From positions 6,584 to 70,583 of the forward strand of contig JAKPFT010000018.1 in NCBI GenBank assembly GCA_029551285.1: a DNA stretch of 64,000 bases, in the 5' to 3' direction. The DNA is from a bacterium. Its GTDB lineage: Bacteria > Ratteibacteria > UBA8468 > B48-G9 > DSTR01. Below, in pieces: positions 22,574-47,606 of the stretch (positions are counted from its first letter, which is position 1; every line of letters starts with the position of its first letter). The notes below the pieces were generated by a model. It had not been told where the DNA came from. It was given only the letters and a program-made list of their open reading frames with translations, and did no database searches. The position numbers were made by a program, and so were the translations under genes.

Positions 22574-24430
22574 ATGCCACCACCGATGGGTATGGGCGGC
22601 CACCTTTTCCGGGGATTGGGTGGACCGCATGAGGAACAATCAGGCGGAAGGTTGCACTGGAAGCGGCTGCTCGGTTACCTTGCCCCGCGCTGGCCGCTGG
22701 TGGTGGTAGCATTGTTTCTTTCTCTGAGTATTACCGGATTAAGCCTGGTCCCTCCCCGGTTGATCGGTCTGGTCATTGACAGGGCTATTGTCAGCAAGAA
22801 CCTTCAGAGCCTGATGTGGCTGACTTTCCTGCTGTTTTTAGCCTATGGGCTGGAACACGGCCTTACCGGAGTGAAAGGCTGGCTTTTAGGCAAGTTGGGA
22901 CAAACTGTTATCTTTGAACTGTGGCAGGATGTCTACCACAATCTGCTGCGGCTTTCCTTTGATTTCTACGACGCCAATCAGACCGGAAACATTATGTCCC
23001 GGGTCACCACTGATGTTGGAGCGGTGGAACGGGTGATTGTGGAAGGGGTGGACATGCTGGTGGTAGCTTCTCTGACGCTGTTAGGCGTCACCGGAATCCT
23101 CTTTTTCATAAACTGGAAACTGGCGCTGATTACTTTAATACCAATACCTCTTCTTCTTTTTGTAGCCTGGCTGGCGACAGAGCGCATGCATCGGGTCTAC
23201 CGGGACGTACGCCGGAAAATGGGCGAAGTCAGCGCCCTGCTGCAGGATAGCCTCTCCGGTATCAGAGAGATAAAAAGCTTTGCCCGGGAAGATTATGAAC
23301 TGGAACGCCTCTGTGTCAGAAGTATGGATTACCTTTCCAGTAACCTGGAAGCCATCAAACTCTGGTCTTTTTTTTCGCCGACCATCATGAGCCTTACTTC
23401 CCTGGGCAGTTTTTTGGTGCTGCTTTTCGGCGGCCGTATCGCCATCCTTAGCGGCACATTAACCCCCGGCCAGATTGTTTCCTTTCTTTTTTATGTAGGC
23501 CCGTTCTACCAGCCGATTCAGAGACTGAACTGGTTCAACCATATGCTCCAGCATGCCCGGGCTTCCAGTGAACGCATCTTTGAACTGATTGACGCTGTTC
23601 CCAGAGTTAAAGAAAGGGAAAAACCGGTCGTTCTGCCGCACCCTATCCGGGGAGAAGTGGTCTACCGCGAAGTTCACTTCTCCTACGAGAATGGCCGGGA
23701 GGTTCTCCACGGCATCTCACTGGAGGCCAGGCCTGGTGAAATTGTCGCTTTGGTGGGTCCCACAGGTGCCGGCAAAACTACCATCGTGAGACTCCTGCCT
23801 CGCTTTTACGACGTTGACTCCGGAAACATTCTCGTTGATGGGGTGGACATCAGAGAACTTTCCCTGAAACAGTTGCGCCAGAGCATCGGGATTGTGATGC
23901 AGGAACCTTTCCTTTTCAACGGAACGGTGCTGGAAAACATTGCTTACGGAAAACCTGGCGCAACCATGGAAGAAATTGTTGAAGCCGCGCGCCTGGCCAA
24001 CGCCCATCAGTTTATCAGTGCTTTTCCTGAGGGTTATGACCAGCAGATTGGAGAAAGAGGTATCAGGCTTTCTGTCGGGGAAAAACAGCGGATTGCCATT
24101 GCCCGGGCTTTGCTGAAAAACCCGCCAATTTTAATTTTAGATGAGGCTACTTCTTCGGTGGACAACCAGACGGAGAAACTTATCCAGGAAGCCATTGAGC
24201 ACCTTCTCCAGAGCCGCACCTCTTTTGTCATTGCCCACCGGCTTTCCACAGTACGGCATGCCCACAAGATTCTGGTGGTGGAACATGGCCAGATTGTGGA
24301 ATCAGGGAGACACGAAGAGCTGGTAGCTGCTGGCGGATTGTATGCCAGACTGTATCACAGTCAGTGGCGTCTGACCGAGAAAATCACCAAAGTAGCCCCA
24401 ACGGGATTCGAACCCGTGTCTGATGGCTGA
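22574..24430 (+). CDS. ABC exporter, fused permease/ATP-binding (MsbA/MdlB-like)
   Basis: N-terminal transmembrane domain, Walker A GPTGAGKT, signature LSVGEKQR, Walker B ILILDEATSSVD, IAHRLST. Confidence 0.93.
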   Translation: MPPPMGMGGHLFRGLGGPHEEQSGGRLHWKRLLGYLAPRWPLVVVALFLSLSITGLSLVPPRLIGLVIDRAIVSKNLQSLMWLTFLLFLAYGLEHGLTGVKGWLLGKLGQTVIFELWQDVYHNLLRLSFDFYDANQTGNIMSRVTTDVGAVERVIVEGVDMLVVASLTLLGVTGILFFINWKLALITLIPIPLLLFVAWLATERMHRVYRDVRRKMGEVSALLQDSLSGIREIKSFAREDYELERLCVRSMDYLSSNLEAIKLWSFFSPTIMSLTSLGSFLVLLFGGRIAILSGTLTPGQIVSFLFYVGPFYQPIQRLNWFNHMLQHARASSERIFELIDAVPRVKEREKPVVLPHPIRGEVVYREVHFSYENGREVLHGISLEARPGEIVALVGPTGAGKTTIVRLLPRFYDVDSGNILVDGVDIRELSLKQLRQSIGIVMQEPFLFNGTVLENIAYGKPGATMEEIVEAARLANAHQFISAFPEGYDQQIGERGIRLSVGEKQRIAIARALLKNPPILILDEATSSVDNQTEKLIQEAIEHLLQSRTSFVIAHRLSTVRHAHKILVVEHGQIVESGRHEELVAAGGLYARLYHSQWRLTEKITKVAPTGFEPVSDG

Positions 24431-24465
24431 GAACCACCTGTCCTGGGCCTCTAGACGATGGGGCC
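24393..24465 (-). tRNA. tRNA-Glu (anticodon CTC)
   Basis: Reverse complement GGCCCCATCGTCTAGAGGCCCAGGACAGGTGGTT-CTC-AGCCATCAGACACGGGTTCGAATCCCGTTGGGGCTA, with acceptor, D, anticodon and TPsiC arms. CCA is not encoded. Confidence 0.95.
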
Positions 24466-27157: not shown

Positions 27158-28816
27158 ATGGATATCCCAAAAGTGCGGTTTCTGCTCGCAATTTTCTTAT
27201 TGTCGGTTACGCTGGTGCCAGCCGCCGAGACAGACTGGTTGAAACTGGCTGTCAAAGCCCACCAGGAGGCACTCTACAGTCTTTCCAACAGGCAGATTGA
27301 AAACTTTCTAAGGACCCATAACCAGGACCCCCGGCGTGATTTTGCCTATCTTCTTCGGGCCGTGAATTACCTCCAGCTGAAGAACTTCCCGGAGGCGGAA
27401 AGTTCTTTGTTGAAACTTCTGTCTGACTTTCCCCAATCGGTTTATGGCCGGGAGGCTTACCGCTATCTGATATTAGTTCGTCTGCAGCAGGGCAAAGTGG
27501 AACTGGCTTTTTCTGATTACACCACATTCGGGGAAAAATATGGCCAGGATGACAACCTCTCAGCCCAGGTGGGTCTGGCTTTGTTTTCGCGGGGCGTGGT
27601 GCTTTTCAATCAGGGGGAGAGAAAGGGCAGCCGGGAAATTTTTCAGAAATTTTTGAATGCCTTTCCCGGTCAGGAACAGGTCGCTTCAGCCTTTTATTAT
27701 CTGGGGTTGATGGAGTATCAGGAAAACCGCTTCCGGGAGGCCATCAACTATCTGCAGAAAGCCAGAACTGGAAAAATGAGTCAGACGGTGCTGGCAGACA
27801 TCTATCTGAAACTGGGCGACTGCTATCTCAACAGCCAGCAACCGGAGGAAGCGGCGCCATATTACCAGAAGGTACTGTCTGATTTTCCCGGTTTTCCCCA
27901 GCGTTCAGCAGTCTACTATAATCTGGCAGTGATTGCCCGCCGAAAAACTGACTATGACCAGGCGCGTTCCCTCTTACAGCAACTTCTAACCGAAAAGACC
28001 ACTCCGAAAATGGCAGCGATGGCTCTTCTGGAATTGGGCCGGCTGAGTCTGCTGGAGGAAAACTGGTCCCGGGCCCAGGGTTACTTTCAGGAAGTTATCG
28101 GGAAGTACCCGGAATCGGAATTTCTGCCTGAAGCTCTGCTGCAACTGGGTTTAATCAATTTCAATCAGAACAATCTGCAGGTCGCTGCTGATTACTTTCA
28201 GAAATGCCTGGAGCAGGCCCGGGAAGAGCCGATGAGAATTCAGGCCTTTTTTGGTCTGGGGTACACCTTTTACAAGTCTGACCGGTTAGCGGAAGCCAGA
28301 CAGCAGTGGAACCAGGTTCTGGAAAGAGCGCCTGGCAGCACTTTTGCTTCGGAAGCACTTTTTCTCCTCGGCAGGAAAGAATTTGATGCCGGAGATTATC
28401 TTTCCGCTTCCCGGGATTTCCAGACTCTACTTTCCCGATTTCCCGAAAGCAACCTGTCCCGGCTGGCGCTGCCGTTGCTAATAGAAAGCCTCGTCCAGCA
28501 GAAAAAACTGGACCAGGCCAGTGAACTGTGTCTGAAATATCTGCCAGCGGCGAAGGGCGATGACCTCAAAGTTCTTTTCGGAAAAGTCCTTTACCTCAAC
28601 AAAAACTGGGAAAGGGCCCGCCAGGTTCTTTCGGGAGTGAGTAAGGCGCAGCCTCTGTTAAAAGCAGAAGCGCTTTTTTATCTGGGACAGGTGGAACTGG
28701 CTCTGGGACGAAAGGCTGAAGCCGAACAGCATTTTCTGGAGGTTATTACCTACTACCCCGATATTGGACAGTGGAGCCGCCTGGCCAGGCAGGCGCTCGG
28801 CCAGAAAACAGAATGA
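27158..28816 (+). CDS. Exported tetratricopeptide-repeat protein
   Basis: Signal peptide and many A..Y.LG...Y...A...F..(l)...FP.S repeats of BamD/YbgF-like type. Confidence 0.85.
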   Translation: MDIPKVRFLLAIFLLSVTLVPAAETDWLKLAVKAHQEALYSLSNRQIENFLRTHNQDPRRDFAYLLRAVNYLQLKNFPEAESSLLKLLSDFPQSVYGREAYRYLILVRLQQGKVELAFSDYTTFGEKYGQDDNLSAQVGLALFSRGVVLFNQGERKGSREIFQKFLNAFPGQEQVASAFYYLGLMEYQENRFREAINYLQKARTGKMSQTVLADIYLKLGDCYLNSQQPEEAAPYYQKVLSDFPGFPQRSAVYYNLAVIARRKTDYDQARSLLQQLLTEKTTPKMAAMALLELGRLSLLEENWSRAQGYFQEVIGKYPESEFLPEALLQLGLINFNQNNLQVAADYFQKCLEQAREEPMRIQAFFGLGYTFYKSDRLAEARQQWNQVLERAPGSTFASEALFLLGRKEFDAGDYLSASRDFQTLLSRFPESNLSRLALPLLIESLVQQKKLDQASELCLKYLPAAKGDDLKVLFGKVLYLNKNWERARQVLSGVSKAQPLLKAEALFYLGQVELALGRKAEAEQHFLEVITYYPDIGQWSRLARQALGQKTE

Positions 28817-30318
28817 AAACGGCGCGAAATGGATGGTGGCTGATTTCAGCCGGCTGGATTCTGTTGACCGGTCCTTTTCTTGGCAGTGAAAACATTCAGT
28901 TACCGGAAGAGTACATTTACGGTCAGGACCTTTCCGTCTGGAAAAGTGAGATTATGTTTTTGCCCGCGCCAGAGGTGAAGATTGATTTTCCGCCCCTTCC
29001 CCTGCCGGAATGGTCAACGGAGGTCCCCCCTGTTCAGGAAGCCACCGCTCCAGAAACTGCCGCCAGCATAGCCAGGCCGTTAGAAACTTTCCCGGTGGAA
29101 CCGGAGAGGGAACGGTGGGTCAGAGTTACCGCGGGCCAAAACCAGACCCTGGGTTTGCTCTGGGTGCACCAGGATAAGACGAGCAGTTTTTCCTGGAGCC
29201 TTTCCGGAGGCGTGGAAAACAGCGCTGGCTGGCGAGCCCATCAGAACAAGAATATCTCCAATCTTTCCTGTCGTCTGGAGCCACTCAGCCGTTATGGTCC
29301 CTTTTTTCAGGTGGAGACACTCATCGGTCGCCAGCAGTTGCCTGGCCCTCTCTGGGCGCCGCTGACCGAAATTAGAAACACCTTCGGGTTCTCTGGCTGG
29401 TACCAGCAGCAACTGGAAGACCATCCTTTTTTGCTAAGCGCTCGGGAGCGTTACTACCAGATGGATGAACTCCAGGCTAATTATCTGAAATTAGCGGGAA
29501 AACTTACCCGACAGTCCTGGCAGTGGTCCAGTGAAGTGGAATGGCAGGAGATAAAAAAGGCCGGCAGCCAGACTGGTTTGCTGACAGAACTGGCGCTGGA
29601 GAAAGAAGCCTTCAGCCTGGGTCTGGGGCTTAAGGGAATCCAGGGGACCGGCCTGAGATTACTTCCCCGGGCCGAAGTTCATCTGAACAGGAACCTGAAA
29701 TTTTCCCTCACCAGTTATTACCAGATAGCCGATTTCTGGGGTGAGGCTGGAAAAAGCGACTACCTGGAAATAAAGCCGGAAAGGCTAAAACCTCAGGAGG
29801 GTTACCGGCTGGCCGCAGGCTATCTCTCAAGCAACTCCTGCGGGTGGTTCTCCTTTGACGCTGGGTATACCTGGTGGAACCATTTCTATACCTGGTCTGA
29901 CCAGGACGGAAATTTTCTTTACGAACCGGCTCTGATCAGGCATCTTTGGGCCACGGATTTGAATTTGAGGGCAGGTTTTAAGCTAACCCGGGATGCCGGC
30001 TTTTTCTTCCGGGCGAAGCAACTCTTCTTTGACAGGAAAATACAGTACTGGCCCGGGACAGAAATCGCCACCGGCCTGACCTGGGAACGTCTTCCTTTCA
30101 GCGGAAATCTGGGGATGATCTATTGTGGCCGGCGCCGGTTTCCGGGACAGACTCTTGGCGGATATACCAGTTGTTATGTTGATTTTTCCTGGCGCTTCAA
30201 ACCCGGGGTGCTCTTCGGGATAAGCGTGGAAAATCTCACCGGGGTTTGCTACCAGGAAGTGCCCGGTTATCCTGGCCGGGGCCGCTACTTCTCCAGCAGA
30301 ATTCAGGTAAATTTTTAG
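28813..30318 (+). CDS. Putative outer-membrane beta-barrel (TonB-receptor-like C-terminus)
   Basis: ATG 28813 overlaps the upstream stop, followed by a signal peptide and alternating amphipathic strands. C-terminus is VENLT...Y..VPGYPGRGR.F...IQVNF with a terminal Phe. Confidence 0.65.
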   Translation: MKTARNGWWLISAGWILLTGPFLGSENIQLPEEYIYGQDLSVWKSEIMFLPAPEVKIDFPPLPLPEWSTEVPPVQEATAPETAASIARPLETFPVEPERERWVRVTAGQNQTLGLLWVHQDKTSSFSWSLSGGVENSAGWRAHQNKNISNLSCRLEPLSRYGPFFQVETLIGRQQLPGPLWAPLTEIRNTFGFSGWYQQQLEDHPFLLSARERYYQMDELQANYLKLAGKLTRQSWQWSSEVEWQEIKKAGSQTGLLTELALEKEAFSLGLGLKGIQGTGLRLLPRAEVHLNRNLKFSLTSYYQIADFWGEAGKSDYLEIKPERLKPQEGYRLAAGYLSSNSCGWFSFDAGYTWWNHFYTWSDQDGNFLYEPALIRHLWATDLNLRAGFKLTRDAGFFFRAKQLFFDRKIQYWPGTEIATGLTWERLPFSGNLGMIYCGRRRFPGQTLGGYTSCYVDFSWRFKPGVLFGISVENLTGVCYQEVPGYPGRGRYFSSRIQVNF

Positions 30319-30333
30319 GGAGGAAAAAAGGCG

Positions 30334-31244
30334 GTGTCAAAAAAGGAATAAAAGAGGAATGAAAAGAAAGGGAACGAACTGGCTCACTGGAGAGTGCTTC
30401 GGCACCGACAAGGACTACGCCGAAATCGGTTGCTCGGCGAACTCGCTCGCACGGTGGCGAGCTCAAACACCGCCGAGTAAGGTATTGCGTCCCGGATGGA
30501 ATTGCCCGGTCCGCTTACCGAACGGTGCCGCTTTTCGTCTTGTCTTGTAACTGTGCCTTCGCCATTCGTTCGCCAGTTATTCCCTTCCTTTTTTGACACA
30601 GTCGGGGGCAATGGCGGAGAGACAAGGACAGGCAGAACCAAAGAAGGAATAAAAGAGGAATGAAAAGGAAGGGAACAAACTGGCTCACTCAGAGTGCTTC
30701 GGCACAGACAAGGACTACGCCGAAATCGGTTGCTCGGCGAACTCGCTCGCCCGGAGGCGAGCTCAGACACCGCCGAGTAAGGTATTGCGTCCCGGATGGA
30801 ATTGCCCGGTCCGCTTACCGAACGCATCCGCTTTTCGTCTTGTCTTGTATCTGTGCCTTCGCAATTGGTTCGCCAGCTGTCCCCTTCCTTTTCTGACACA
30901 GTGGGGGGAAGGAGAGATAAAGAATTGCAGAACCAAAAAAGGAACAAAAGAGGAATGAAAAGAAAGGGAACAAACTGGCTCACTCAAGGTGCTGCGGCAC
31001 AGACAAGGACTATGCCGAAATCGGTTGCTCGGCGAACTCGCTCGCCCGGGGGCAAGCTCATACACCGCCGAGTAAGGTATTGCGTCCCGGATGGACTTCT
31101 CCGGTCCGCTTACCGAACGCATCCGCTTTTCGTCTTGTCTTGTAACTGTGCCTTCGCCATTCGTTCGCCAGGTGTCCCTTCCTTTTTTGACACAGTGGGG
31201 GAAGGGGATAAGGAGTTGAAAAACCATTGACGGAAACAAGAAAA
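30334..31244 (+). repeat. Tandem array of three ~300-bp structured non-coding units (MITE/ncRNA-like)
   Basis: Units start at about 30343, 30644 and 30939 (period about 300 and 295). The perfect 15-bp inverted repeat GTGTCAAAAAAGGAA (30334-30348) matches TTCCTTTTTTGACAC at 30585-30599 and 31179-31193. Confidence 0.95.
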
Positions 31245-31298
31245 GAGAAAAAAACAACTTGATGTCTTTGACTGTTCCCGGTACTAAAAGGGAGGAAG

Positions 31299-31841
31299 AT
31301 GGAACGAGAAAAAGCCTTAATTCTGCTTCAGGAAAAGTTACCGAATAAGAACCTTTTCAAGCACTCGCTGGCGGTAGAAGTCTGTTTGAAAGCCCTGGCC
31401 AGCCGTCTTGGTCAGGACAGCCAGACCTGGGCTCTGGCCGGGCTGCTTCACGACATAGATTACGAAATAACTAAAGAGCAGCCAGGCCGGCATGGCCTTT
31501 TAGCCGGGGAGATTTTGCAGGGGCAGGTCCCGGAGGAAGTTATCCAGGCCATTGCCGCGCATGCTGGCCATAAAGAAAAAAGGACCCTTCTTGAAGAAGC
31601 CATCTGCGCGGTTGACCCTTTAACCGGGTTGATTGTCGCCTGTGCGCTCATCCGGCCAGAGAAGAAACTCAGTGTCATTGACACCGCTTTTGTGCTTAAC
31701 CGTTTTGGTGAGAAAAGATTTGCCGCTGGCGCTGACCGGGAAGCGATTAAGGGTTGTGAAAAATTGGGCCTGTCTCTGGAGAGTTTTATTACCCTGTGCC
31801 TGGAGGCAATGAAGAAGATTGCACCGCAGTTAGGTCTGTAA
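31299..31841 (+). CDS. HD/HDIG-domain metal-dependent phosphohydrolase
   Basis: KHSLAVE, GLLHDIDY, AIAAH, D.LTGLIVACALIRP, FAAGADR. GGAGG SD. Confidence 0.88.
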   Translation: MEREKALILLQEKLPNKNLFKHSLAVEVCLKALASRLGQDSQTWALAGLLHDIDYEITKEQPGRHGLLAGEILQGQVPEEVIQAIAAHAGHKEKRTLLEEAICAVDPLTGLIVACALIRPEKKLSVIDTAFVLNRFGEKRFAAGADREAIKGCEKLGLSLESFITLCLEAMKKIAPQLGL

Positions 31842-45214: not shown

Positions 45215-45661
45215 TTAGGACGTTTTCCGAAGGGGAAAGGTTGCTTTAGCACTTTCGTCCAGCAACTTTTTTAACCTGGCCAGTCTTCTTCTATCTGCTG
45301 GAGAAAGACTGACCCGGGGCAGATTGTTTTCCATCTTTTTCTTAAGAGTTTCCGGAATCTTGCCCCGGTGTTGCCACCAGAACTGGCCCCGCGCTTTTTC
45401 CTGAGAGAGAAAAGGTGAAAAGTGCTGATAGCAGTCCGGGCAACCAAGGAAGCGATACCGCCGGATGTCCTGCCAGCGATATCCGCAGGCCGGACATACC
45501 CGGCCAGTTCGTTTCCGTTCCTTCCTGACCGGTGTCCGTGTTTCCTCCAGCGAAACCGCCGCGATACAGACCTCCGGGGCGGCCGGGTTTTTTTCCGTCA
45601 GGGTCACCACCAGTTTTGTCCAGCCTCCGGCAAGAAAAAAATCTGTCTTACTCGGTTTCAT
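45215..45661 (-). CDS. mcsA: Degenerate McsA-like protein
   Basis: CPACG...F.GCPDCY..F...H.GK.P central block and position upstream of mcsB. The N-terminal CxxC pairs and C-terminal UVR motif are missing. Confidence 0.65.
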   Translation of the reverse strand: MKPSKTDFFLAGGWTKLVVTLTEKNPAAPEVCIAAVSLEETRTPVRKERKRTGRVCPACGYRWQDIRRYRFLGCPDCYQHFSPFLSQEKARGQFWWQHRGKIPETLKKKMENNLPRVSLSPADRRRLARLKKLLDESAKATFPLRKTS

Positions 45662-46532
45662 ACACAGGAATACCTTCCCTTATCGCTTTTTCCTTGAAGG
45701 CCTGTCTGATTCTTCCCGTGGTCGGCCCGGGCCGGCCGGTGCCGATAGGACGGCCGTCCAGGGATGTTGCCGGGATAATCTCCGCCGCAGTTCCTGTAAG
45801 AAAGCATTCGTCGGCCACATAGATGTCGTGTCGGGTAAGGTTTTGTTCCCTGACTTCCAGTCCGAGACTCCGGCCCAGTTCCATTACTACCTTGCGGGTG
45901 ACCCCGGCCAGCACGCCGGCGTGCACAGGAGGCGTGGCCAGGACCTGGCCGTGGACCACGAAGATATTCTCCCCGGTGCACTCGCTCACATATCCGGCAT
46001 GATTGAGGATTAAACCTTCGTCGGCGCCGGCGTGATTGGCCTCTATCTTGGCCAGGATGTTATTAAGATAATTCAAAGACTTGATGGCCGGGTTGACCGA
46101 TTCGTGAAGGTTGCGTCTGGTCGCCACCGTCACTACTTTCAATCCTTTTTCGTAGTAACTTTCCGGATAAAGTTGAATTTTGCTGGCAATAATGAAGATG
46201 GTTGGCCGGGGACATTTTCTCGGGTCCAGGCCTAAATCGCCCACCCCCCGGGTGACCACAATCCGAATATAACTGTCTTTCAACTTGTTGGCTTTCACCG
46301 TTTCCATGACTGCCTGCCGCAGGGCCTGCCTGCTCAGCGGCACTTCCAGCATAATCCCGTGAGCCGACCAGTACAGCCGCTGCAGGTGTTCTTCCAGACA
46401 GAAAATACGGCCCTGGTAACTGCGCAACCCTTCAAAGACACCATCTCCGTACAGAAGGCCATGGTCAAAAACAGATATTTTAGCCTGTTCTTCTGGCACC
46501 AGTTTTCCGTTCAGATAGATCAGCAAACCCAT
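45648..46532 (-). CDS. ilvE: Branched-chain amino acid aminotransferase
   Basis: DHGLLYGDGVFEG, IKSLNYLNNI, EC.GENIF, L.GVTR, ADECFLTGTAAE. Confidence 0.95.
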   Translation of the reverse strand: MGLLIYLNGKLVPEEQAKISVFDHGLLYGDGVFEGLRSYQGRIFCLEEHLQRLYWSAHGIMLEVPLSRQALRQAVMETVKANKLKDSYIRIVVTRGVGDLGLDPRKCPRPTIFIIASKIQLYPESYYEKGLKVVTVATRRNLHESVNPAIKSLNYLNNILAKIEANHAGADEGLILNHAGYVSECTGENIFVVHGQVLATPPVHAGVLAGVTRKVVMELGRSLGLEVREQNLTRHDIYVADECFLTGTAAEIIPATSLDGRPIGTGRPGPTTGRIRQAFKEKAIREGIPVYETE

Positions 46533-46585
46533 TCTCTCCTCCTGTGCCCTGCCCGGGTCCTGTGACAGACTTTAATTTTTCAGTT

Positions 46586-46907
46586 TTTTCTTGTTTCTGT
46601 CAATGGTTTTGCAACTGCTTCTTTCCCTACCCTTCCCCTGTCTAAAAAAGGAAGGGGACAGCTGGCGAACGAATTGCGAAGGCACAGATACAAGACAAGA
46701 TGAAAAGCGGCAGCGTTCGGTAAGCGGACCGGAGAAGTTTATCCGGGACGCAATACCTTACTCGGCGGTGTCTCCAGCTCGCCACCTGGCGAGCGAGTTC
46801 GCCGAGCAACCGATTTCGGCGTAGTCCTTGTCTGTGCCGGAGCACTTTGAGTGAGCCAGTTCGTTCCCTTTCTTTTCATTCCTTAATTTCTTTTCTTTTT
46901 TTGACAC
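46586..46907 (-). repeat. Solo copy of the ~300-bp structured element (head + core + tail)
   Basis: Reverse complement matches the 30.3-31.2 kb units along their length, including the GTGTCAAAAAA head and the AGTTGCAAAACCATTGACAGAAACAAGAAAA tail. Confidence 0.95.
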
Positions 46908-46916
46908 TACCCCTGC

Positions 46917-47606
46917 CTACGTGATTTTTGTTTTTTCGGTGCGTTCAATCCGGCCATCTTTTAAGTATACGACCTTCGTGGCTATCTGTAAAAAGATTTC
47001 GTTGTGGGTGGCGATGACAAAAGTGGCTGTCTGCTGCTGGTTCAACCGGCCGATGAGGTCAAGCAGAGATGCTGCCGCCTGCCGGTCAATGGAGCCGGTG
47101 GGTTCGTCGGCGAAGACAACCTGGGGCTGGCAGATTAAACTCCGGCAGATGGCCACCCTTTGCATTTCTCCTCCGGAAAGCTGGGCCGGGTAAGCATTTT
47201 TCTTCCCCAGCAGGTCAAACCTGGCCAGAAGTTCCTCGGCCTGCCGGCGATAGCCGTTGAGCCCGCTGGCCTGCCTTTCTTTAATCCATAATGGCAGGAA
47301 GACATTTTCCCGGACCGTCAACTCCGGCAGGAGATGAAAAAACTGGAAGACAAAGCCAAAGTTCCGGTTGCGCAGACGAGCCGCCTCCGGGTCAGGCAGA
47401 TGGGTAATTTCCTGGCCGTTAAGGAAGACCCGACCAGAACTCGGCCGGTCTAAAATGGCCAGGAGATTTAAAAGGGTGGTTTTCCCTGACCCGGATGGAC
47501 CCAGCACCACCACGATGTCACCCTGCTGGATCTCCACGGTAACATCAGAAAGCGCAGTCACCGCTCCGTACTTTTTGGTTAAGCCTTCGCCTCTTAACAG
47601 AGCCAT
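46917..47606 (-). CDS. lolD: Lipoprotein-releasing system ATP-binding protein LolD
   Basis: GPSGSGKT, GFVFQFFHLLPEL, LSGGEMQR, ADEPTG. Lies downstream of lolC/E. Confidence 0.85.
   Translation of the reverse strand: MALLRGEGLTKKYGAVTALSDVTVEIQQGDIVVVLGPSGSGKTTLLNLLAILDRPSSGRVFLNGQEITHLPDPEAARLRNRNFGFVFQFFHLLPELTVRENVFLPLWIKERQASGLNGYRRQAEELLARFDLLGKKNAYPAQLSGGEMQRVAICRSLICQPQVVFADEPTGSIDRQAAASLLDLIGRLNQQQTATFVIATHNEIFLQIATKVVYLKDGRIERTEKTKIT

Follow-up and report, generated by a model that had tools for sequence, protein, structure and literature searches.

To our knowledge, few prokaryotic DDE transposons aim at an expression signal. The documented parallel of aimed DDE insertion concerns promoters, not ribosome-binding sites: TnGBS, ISLre2, and ISKra4 insert in a set orientation 15-17 bp upstream of sigma-A promoters, and that report ascribes the orientation to unlike inverted repeats and describes gene avoidance (Guerillot et al. 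2014, PMC3942029).

For the IS6 family of insertion sequences (ISs), Varani et al. 2021 (PMC7986276) give an 8-bp target-site duplication (TSD) and mention two miniature derivatives (MITEs). Harmer & Hall 2019 (PMC6807381) place ISHco2, ISHahy6, and ISTet2 in IS6/IS26 clade VIII; these elements measure 1713-1761 bp, have an 8-bp TSD, and encode transposases with a zinc finger and a further 100-aa N-terminal extension. Their passages on the long clade VIII ISs state that no experimental data exist for these elements, and mention no target preference. A MITE that can sit inside an operon has been described in Geobacter uraniireducens: Chunjie, 178-235 bp, with terminal inverted repeats (TIRs) and duplications (PMC10969869).

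The locus reported here lies in a window, the whole 64,000-nucleotide stretch of bacterial DNA that was analysed. It consists of three head-to-tail copies of a non-autonomous transposable element, a MITE. Like TnGBS, ISLre2, and ISKra4, this is a DDE element that sits in one orientation at a fixed distance from an expression signal and has unlike ends. Those elements have the −35 box as landmark and a Mutator-like transposase, whereas here the proposed landmark is a ribosome-binding site 13-14 bp away and the transposase is IS6-like. Like clade VIII elements, the parent IS is about 1.78 kb long, with an 8-bp duplication and a DDE transposase with a Cys-rich N-terminal extension; its intact relatives have about 485 aa, compared with the 453-454 aa given in PMC6807381. 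Chunjie is likewise a MITE of a few hundred base pairs with TIRs, duplications, and a possible operon site, but the passage on it in PMC10969869 neither reports it in tandem nor gives a rule of distance or orientation to gene starts.

Anatomy of the window array

The whole element occupies 30330..31278 on the + strand and has one left end and one right end, as defined by the sequence itself, by Tandem Repeats Finder, and by alignment to the ends of a full-length IS in a related genome. An earlier reading of the window made without database searches (the sequence-only reading) had seen three highly similar units of about 300 bp in a gap of about 980 bp. The gap, between 28771..30318(+) and 31299..31841(+), is indeed 980 bp and is filled by the array; Tandem Repeats Finder returns a single array at 30338-31226 with period 295, 3.0 copies, 89% matches, and a score of 1412. 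The extent given at the time, 30334-31244, did fall on the element, but its true bounds are 30330 and 31278.

Three units of 310, 295, and 291 bp lie head-to-tail, followed by a 53-bp tail, and differ from one another by about 10%. Each consists of about 45 nt of IS left end, a 160-nt core, an inverted left-end arm, and a purine-rich stretch homologous to the IS right-end region. Unit 1 (30330..30639, +) runs from its left-end arm through core and inverted arm to the purine-rich linker, with a right-end-like finish ...GGCAGAACC. Unit 2 (30640..30934, +) begins AAAGAAGG, which is the left end minus its first 9 bases, and abuts the ...GAACC of unit 1; unit 3 (30935..31225, +) is delimited by sequence and Tandem Repeats Finder. 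The structured cores, located by cmsearch with model R1 and marked by covariation, lie on the + strand at 30400..30559 in unit 1 (183.9 bits, L024:1262-1421), 30700..30859 in unit 2 (193 bits, L024:1562-1721), and 30995..31154 in unit 3 (186.8 bits, L024:1857-2016).

The left TIR (30330..30346, +) was placed by the consensus of 43 heads, by alignment to the IS left end, and by pattern count; it is degenerate, with GGCG in place of the family GGTA before GTGTCAAAAAAGG. The tail (31226..31278, +) is homologous to the final ~55 nt of the parent element, as seen in 43 array tails and the alignment to the IS right end. It closes with the right terminal repeat (31266-31278, +), CTTTGACTGTTCC, for which the family consensus is CTTTGACAGAACC.

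Several details of the sequence-only reading need amendment. The 15-nt head, described as a perfect inverse of the 3' ends of the cores, is an exact inverse for units 1 and 3, but unit 2 has one mismatch. Neither head nor tail is unique to this array as had been supposed: with up to 2 mismatches allowed, the genome has 85 occurrences of the head motif, compared with 4 for the reversed control, and the tail is common to other loci of the family. Nor do the linkers resemble spacers; alignment shows them to be homologous to one another and to the right-end region of the parent IS. A CRISPR array was considered and rejected, in agreement with the earlier view, on the period of 295 and on linkers that are mutually homologous, unlike short repeats with unrelated spacers.

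Protein coding was likewise ruled out. Open frames across the array are not conserved between subfamilies, and what distinguishes one subfamily from another is loop indels and compensatory changes, for which reason the units are taken to be non-coding.

Upstream, a 515-aa ORF without a Pfam family (28771..30318, +) has its stop codon 11 nt ahead of the element. Downstream, a 20-nt host flank (31279..31298, +) leads from the right end to a start codon and contains a GGGAGG ribosome-binding site at 31290-31295, with the Shine-Dalgarno motif at position 13. The gene that follows (31299..31841, +; 180 aa, co-oriented with the array) encodes an HD-domain protein (PF01966, 37.9 bits). A second copy of the element, noticed earlier as a single unit near 46.6 kb, was confirmed at 46556..46911 on the − strand; its left end lies just past the stop of the ORF at 46917..47606(-), and 23 nt separate its right end from the start of the ORF at 45648..46532(-).

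An abundant family in one genome

The genome that holds the window (G000) comprises 2.72 Mb in 99 contigs, is 93% complete, and is broken at repeats. Comparisons were made with two genomes of the same genus (G001 and G002) and with an order-level set of 52 genomes. Searching G000 by blastn with one unit gave 187 HSPs in 131 places. The window subfamily, family A, accounts for 102 loci, 157 HSPs, and 39,364 bp. As a repeat, then, it is an ordinary but abundant MITE that makes up 1.45% of the genome. The same-genus genomes contain no family A by blastn.

A count of copies and of units per array had been suggested as a check; of 43 complete arrays internal to contigs, 32 are single units and 7 are double, while arrays of three and of four units number 2 each. 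Twelve end-like motifs lie outside arrays and look like chance occurrences, and one of these is a minimal end-to-end remnant (C43:62730).

The repeat is a main cause of assembly breaks in G000, accounting for about a third, since 65 of the 198 contig ends lie inside a repeat match. When these MAGs are annotated, the element explains long 'intergenic' gaps as well as contig breaks. Read depth summed over the repeat is at least a hundred-fold that of the flanks, a figure that sums all copies and possibly other organisms. The three DNA runs consist of short contigs, none of those listed spanning the array, and depth says nothing about unit number.

Ends and parent element

Over 43 arrays, (R)GGTAGTGTCAAAAAAGG... 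is common to the family A heads and ...CTTTGACAGAACC closes the tails. Throughout the family, reverse-complementing the right end ...TTTGACAGAACC gives a match to the left end GGTAGTGTCAAAAAAGG, and because of this match the ends are read as TIRs.

A full-length IS of about 1.78 kb with the same two ends is present in G001 (G001:C33, L120:1108-2887), and was the only one found in the order-level search. The head and tail of the window array align to its left and right ends, including the purine-rich 'linker' stretch. On the opposite strand this IS encodes a 104-aa ORF that overlaps a 402-aa open frame. The latter matches PF13610 (DDE_Tnp_IS240) at 31.6 bits, with a cut-off of 27; rve_3 is a weak match. 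Its best NCBIfam model is IS6 (NF033587; positions 8-201/202), with 48.2 bits, far below the curated cut-off of 125. Homologs number 2176 at E <= 1e-5, and most of the 120 matches listed have 482-486 aa; since the homologs listed are mostly of this length, the G001 copy looks frameshifted. One homolog among the matches listed, 57% identical, bears the NCBI name 'IS6 family transposase ISHco2'. Transposase fragments 54-78% identical occur in G003, G020, and G037.

On the strength of ends that match an IS whose transposase carries PF13610 and has IS6 as its best model, the array is filed under IS6-like elements, as one of their MITEs; with the IS6 model below cut-off, its assignment to the family proper is tentative. 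The resemblance to IS1182/IS5-type termini put forward from the bare sequence did not hold up against this parent transposase. IS1 parentage was also considered, because of the end motif and the duplication length, and was dropped: PF03400 occurs in 0 of the 52 genomes of the order.

A copy enclosing a transposase, which had been proposed as informative, was thus found as the full-length IS in G001, but none was found in G000. Nor was any transposase of the IS6-like kind found in G000, a genome 93% complete and broken at repeats. A weak PF13610 match at G000:C23 lies inside a 343-aa ORF with no array end beside it; we take this ORF to resemble an IS481/IS3-type integrase.

Evidence for transposition

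Target duplication was assessed from the two 9-nt flanks, one outside each end of the element. In 7 of 33 arrays these flanks agree in register at 6 or more positions, compared with 1.4% of mismatched pairs, and no excess was seen out of register. Perfect duplications flank one copy in G000 (C80:11826) and a 502-bp relative in G024 (L108); an 8-bp reading, with ends GG...CC, fits both. These comparisons support a target duplication of 8-9 bp for family A. At the window array itself, where both terminal repeats are degenerate, no target duplication is recognisable.

Sites empty of the element, which the sequence-only reading had suggested seeking in relatives, were found in G001 and G002 for the 46.6-kb copy. 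The two genes that flank it, with 405 nt between them here, are separated by 46 nt in G001 and by 26 nt in G002. The reconstructed spacer aligns with the G002 spacer, and the duplicated bases include the upstream stop codon. Moreover, the G002 ortholog of the HD-domain gene has a 22-nt spacer ahead of it, without the element. Together, the TIRs, the TSD signal, the empty sites, the ~100 loci, and the full-length IS in a sister genome bear out the early suggestion of a modular, non-autonomous, MITE-like element.

Position relative to genes

The usual site of the element is a short spacer between two co-directional genes. In 42 of 43 complete arrays the next ORF is co-oriented, has its own ribosome-binding site, and encodes 60 aa or more; in 25 of them a same-strand open frame stops no more than 25 nt ahead of the head. 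The upstream stop codon may lie anywhere from -1 to >100 nt away, and the genes downstream of arrays are mutually unrelated.

Distance to the downstream start codon is tightly set. Right ends were found for 68 of the 77 G000 arrays whose 3' side lies inside a contig, and 55 of these 68 lie 20-25 nt before a start codon in sense orientation: the commonest distance is 22 nt (23 ends), then 23 nt (17), followed by 21 and 24 nt (5 each), 20 nt (3), and 25 nt (2). The first GGAGG-like motif begins at position 14 in 22, 13 in 10, 12 in 6, and 15 in 6. Of the 13 ends outside the main peak, several are internal end look-alikes picked up by the pattern. One G000 copy (C80:25346) has GGGAGG at position 13 with no ORF behind it.

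The spacing recurs beyond this genome. Ends of the family A type, enclosing quite different interiors, occur in G007, G010, and G024, which belong to two other families of the order; G007 has 52 right ends compared with 0 in the control, and one G024 element with the same ends carries a DUF559-like ORF. Among 20 right ends in G007 and G010, 17 have the start codon at 22 nt (10 ends), 23 nt (5), or 24 nt (2), and the remaining three have it at 20, 16, and 9 nt. The right end of the full-length IS in G001 is 23 nt before a start codon.

Scanning metagenome contigs with a transposase alignment identified 80 loci with full-length relatives, 50-69% identical. Thirty-eight were usable, having a recognisable end 123-137 nt upstream of the transposase gene and enough flank; 39 had no recognisable end motif, and in 3 the end was too near the edge of the locus. 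In 26 of the 38, the first RBS-like pentamer begins after exactly 13 nt; in 31, a start codon lies 23-26 nt off, always on the strand opposite the transposase. The main peak leaves out seven of the 38 ends.

Simple patterns, rather than a gene finder, served to call start codons and ribosome-binding sites. As a pattern across these sites, the transposase-proximal (right) end lies 13-14 nt upstream of GGAGG and 22-25 nt before the start codon, in one orientation. Because the same spacing is found in G000, in G007 and G010, at the G001 IS, and in the metagenome copies, the rule belongs to the transposase clade and is not particular to G000. A literature search of limited scope returned no description of such a rule for IS6-like elements; as far as checked, aimed transposition of this kind would be new.

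The sequence-only reading was silent on what is the most unusual feature of the locus, namely the fixed distance and orientation to the downstream gene start.

A structured core with two vehicles

Weaker blastn matches in G000 cover unit positions 74-228 only, and define two further groups, families B and C. Family B consists of single copies of ~330 bp, bounded by a different TIR and by ~9-bp direct repeats; in family C the closing stem is of a third kind. What families A, B, and C have in common is the core of ~160 nt. Their closing stems differ in sequence, yet are paired in each, and an internal hairpin of the core occurs in five compensated versions.

RNAalifold predicts 22 pairs in the core, and in 8 of these both partners have changed. 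A covariance model built from it has matches in 14 of the 52 genomes of the order, G000 included; each of the order's three families is represented, and a single genome holds as many as 20 scored copies. Over 48 matches, 94.4% of cells are paired, compared with 81.8% in shuffles, a level reached by 0 of 500 shuffles; 14 of the 22 pairs have changed on both sides, and slid controls pair at 35-51%. G-U pairs are seen on the sense strand. Coming from related sequences in an alignment that was itself fitted to the model, these figures are support rather than proof that pairing is kept by compensatory change. Unit 1 as a whole has a predicted fold of -104.6 kcal/mol (z -3.57), and 0 of 200 shuffles were as stable.

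A separate contig scan returned 11 stretches from bacterial MAGs and one from an archaeal MAG; the archaeal stretch had no match to the core model and for that reason is probably a chance match.

Rfam returned no match at gathering score over the whole window except one tRNA; across 30200-31400, with E up to 10, the best match scored 19.1 bits against a gathering score of 80. No family thus reaches threshold at the array. The alternative first floated for it, a multicopy structured RNA, survives in part: the compensatory pairing of the 160-nt core favours structure, and the proposal as a whole is only partly supported.

The family B terminal repeat is present in 27 of the 52 genomes. In G038 it bounds a 2.4-kb element that encodes a DUF6788 protein and a 510-aa DDE_Tnp_1 protein, the latter IS4-like and below cut-off. 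Judged by this shared terminal repeat, family B is a MITE of an unrelated, IS4-like IS that carries the same core as putative cargo. Neither full-length IS (G001, G038) contains the core. Family B elements do not sit at ribosome-binding sites; they occupy longer intergenic regions, upstream of promoters. Together with the G029-type copies they have no orientation bias towards genes (11 vs 10, on crude ORF calls).

How arrays form

BOX elements of Streptococcus pneumoniae are likewise modular head-(unit)n-tail repeats, intergenic and present in many copies, with modules of about 45-60 bp. By that description the array differs, in that its modules are IS ends plus a 160-nt cargo and its parent is a known kind of IS.

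Within arrays, each unit finishes in a right-end-like ...GCAGAACC, which directly abuts AAAAAAGG, position 10 of the left end, with no duplication between. Units of the same array are 91.5% identical, compared with 89.2% between different arrays, and of 52 units 2 have their closest relative within their own array, where chance would give 0.8. Recent local duplication was rejected as the origin of the arrays, because units within an array are hardly more alike than units of different arrays. No position-specific subfamilies of first, middle, or last units were found.

Arrays would instead grow when an incoming right end is joined at position 10 of a left end already in place. At 14-15 nt inside the unit-unit junction, near the spacing rule, there is a purine-rich AGAGGAATG, and this suggests that new copies may be drawn to insert beside resident left ends. 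Partial left-end remnants were also seen; some array heads fit nested insertion with a duplication, and most do not.

Proposed aimed insertion and its alternatives

The whole is best explained, and quite probably so, as a MITE array with an IS6-like parent whose right end lies at a set distance upstream of GGAGG. It is likely that GGAGG in the target DNA serves as a landmark, recognised either by the transposase or by a factor that it binds. The two unlike ends would then fix the orientation of insertion; the element would thereby gain a safe site and break no gene, and selection would remove copies that land beside GGAGG inside genes. Aimed insertion is favoured because the peak is 1-2 nt wide, is set from the gene-start side, and goes with a one-sided orientation, and because selection alone predicts a broad spread with copies in longer intergenic regions.

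Random insertion followed by purifying selection alone would also leave survivors that break no gene, keep the ribosome-binding site free, and end at least ~20 nt from the start codon. All the sites analysed are survivors of selection, none a fresh insertion, and the spacers concerned are short (22-46 nt at the empty sites), with few tolerated positions. A lower bound of about 20-22 nt also fits the ribosome footprint. GGAGG precedes nearly every gene in G000, so selection for ribosome access could contribute to the spacing. As a full account, however, selection by itself seems unlikely: the narrow peak is set from the gene-start side, whereas the upstream stop lies anywhere from just overlapping to beyond 100 nt; the same spacing recurs in three families of the order and in metagenomic copies whose transposases are only 50-69% identical; orientation is one-sided in 42 of 43 arrays; family A is scarce in longer intergenic regions, and family B, in the same genome, lies upstream of promoters; and one copy has its GGAGG but no gene. 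A place just before the ribosome-binding site might otherwise reflect function, if the units were domesticated host RNA leaders with a cis-regulatory or stabilising role. The compensatory pairing of the core, its carriage by two unrelated vehicles, the stable fold, and the G-U pairs on the sense strand speak for this possibility, which we nonetheless find doubtful, given that the same ends hold the same distance from gene starts with different cargo in G007 and with a DUF559-like ORF in G024, that the full-length IS lacks the core, that same-genus genomes lack the element at orthologous sites, that the downstream genes are mutually unrelated, and that family B and G029-type copies of the core are oriented without bias. 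It is very improbable that the array is a collapsed or chimeric repeat made by the assembler. Short reads cannot resolve the repeat in which 65 of 198 contig ends fall, and the true n may differ; yet the units are ~10% apart (the sequence-only reading, too, had held differences between copies against an artefact), 11 internal loci flanked by unique sequence carry arrays of 2-4 units, and related genomes, independently assembled, hold related tandem copies.

Aimed insertion upstream of GGAGG may extend further. It is somewhat probable that the whole IS6-like clade, with its MITEs, uses GGAGG as a landmark at 13-14 bp and colonises operon spacers in this way, with the N-terminal domains as the motif reader; that the extra N-terminal domains of the transposase, which distinguish it from IS26, play this part is a guess. 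If the clade-wide reading is true, it would account for ~100 loci in one genome, some of them tandem arrays, without gene breakage.

If true, insertion aimed at ribosome-binding sites would be a new safe-site strategy, and would explain how a selfish element spreads inside the operons of a compact genome. It would also open the long IS6-like transposases to experiment, and might supply a natural protein for inserting DNA at a fixed spacing from GGAGG.

Possible consequences for the host

Lying in the sense direction, after one gene's stop codon and ahead of the ribosome-binding site that follows, the element should be co-transcribed with its operon; its units would thus form part of operon mRNA. 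The 5' arm is 74% purine and 11% C, and the sense strand would be expected to fold into a stable rod.

A consensus scan for promoter-like sites across 29800-31800 returned none on the + strand and one outward site on the − strand, at the left end, where 0.8 would be expected by chance. A promoter in the tail was rejected: the scan has no + strand site, and the −10 positions of the flank are occupied by GGAGG.

Finally, the HD-domain gene has a different upstream neighbour in G002, which suggests that recombination between arrays may have reshuffled gene order.

Array surroundings and related short elements

Synteny with a second genome of the same order (G002:C165:6935; window 31285 onward) is broken at the array. 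In G002 a 318-aa gene is followed by a 22-nt spacer and then by the HD-domain gene found downstream of the array; in the window the array is preceded by a different upstream gene, a 515-aa ORF. Three open frames across the array are long, reaching 144-199 aa (30384..30983, minus; 30763..31257, minus; 30796..31230, plus). These are by-products of the repeats, and could give rise to false gene calls. The sole Rfam match in the window is a tRNA gene at 24393-24465 (minus strand).

Family A, the MITE subfamily that forms the array, has relatives of several sizes that share its ends or arms. Two 502-bp elements with family A ends, 99.8% identical to each other, are present in G024 (L108:1500-2001 and L112:1500-2001). 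Each carries a small passenger ORF, which we take to be DUF559-like; at one of the two, the duplication is perfect and a start codon lies 26 nt downstream. A mini family A element in G032 (L032) is reduced to its two arms plus a tetraloop hairpin, with a start codon 28 nt downstream. Smaller still is a remnant of about 35 nt on the minus strand of the genome holding the window (G000:C43:62730), in which apparent left and right ends are fused with almost nothing between them, immediately 5' of a ribosome-binding site and ATG. G032 also contains a distant family C-like unit in tandem (L036).

Family B and its flanks

Family B MITEs (G000 loci L047-L058, outside the window; for example, G000:C14:98300-98800) have the structured core in common with family A, together with a terminal repeat unlike that of family A. 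They are about 330 bp long, with a duplication of about 9 bp. The corresponding full-length IS, of 2.4 kb (G038 L103:5-2406), encodes a 510-aa DDE_Tnp_1 protein and a DUF6788 protein.

At about half of 21 ends of family B or G029-type elements, a TTGACA-like hexamer lies 16-22 nt outside the searched motif, often with a TATAAT-like box downstream (loci L033, L037, L048, L053, L055, L057, L077, and L088). The family B IS, unrelated to that of family A, may target promoters, like the TnGBS and ISLre2 elements, which aim at promoters (Guerillot et al. 2014, PMC3942029).

Leaders of full-length transposase genes

Among the metagenome loci with full-length transposase relatives (L150-L229), an inverted repeat, CTTGCCTCC ... 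GGAGGCAAG, is conserved in the roughly 120 nt before the transposase start. The transposase's own ribosome-binding site would pair through this repeat with an upstream anti-SD stretch, and the predicted pairing could act as a translational lock against read-through transcripts. On two of the metagenome contigs (L152 and L158), the IS end lies not beside a gene start, but 9 nt from the end of an inverted element of the same kind.
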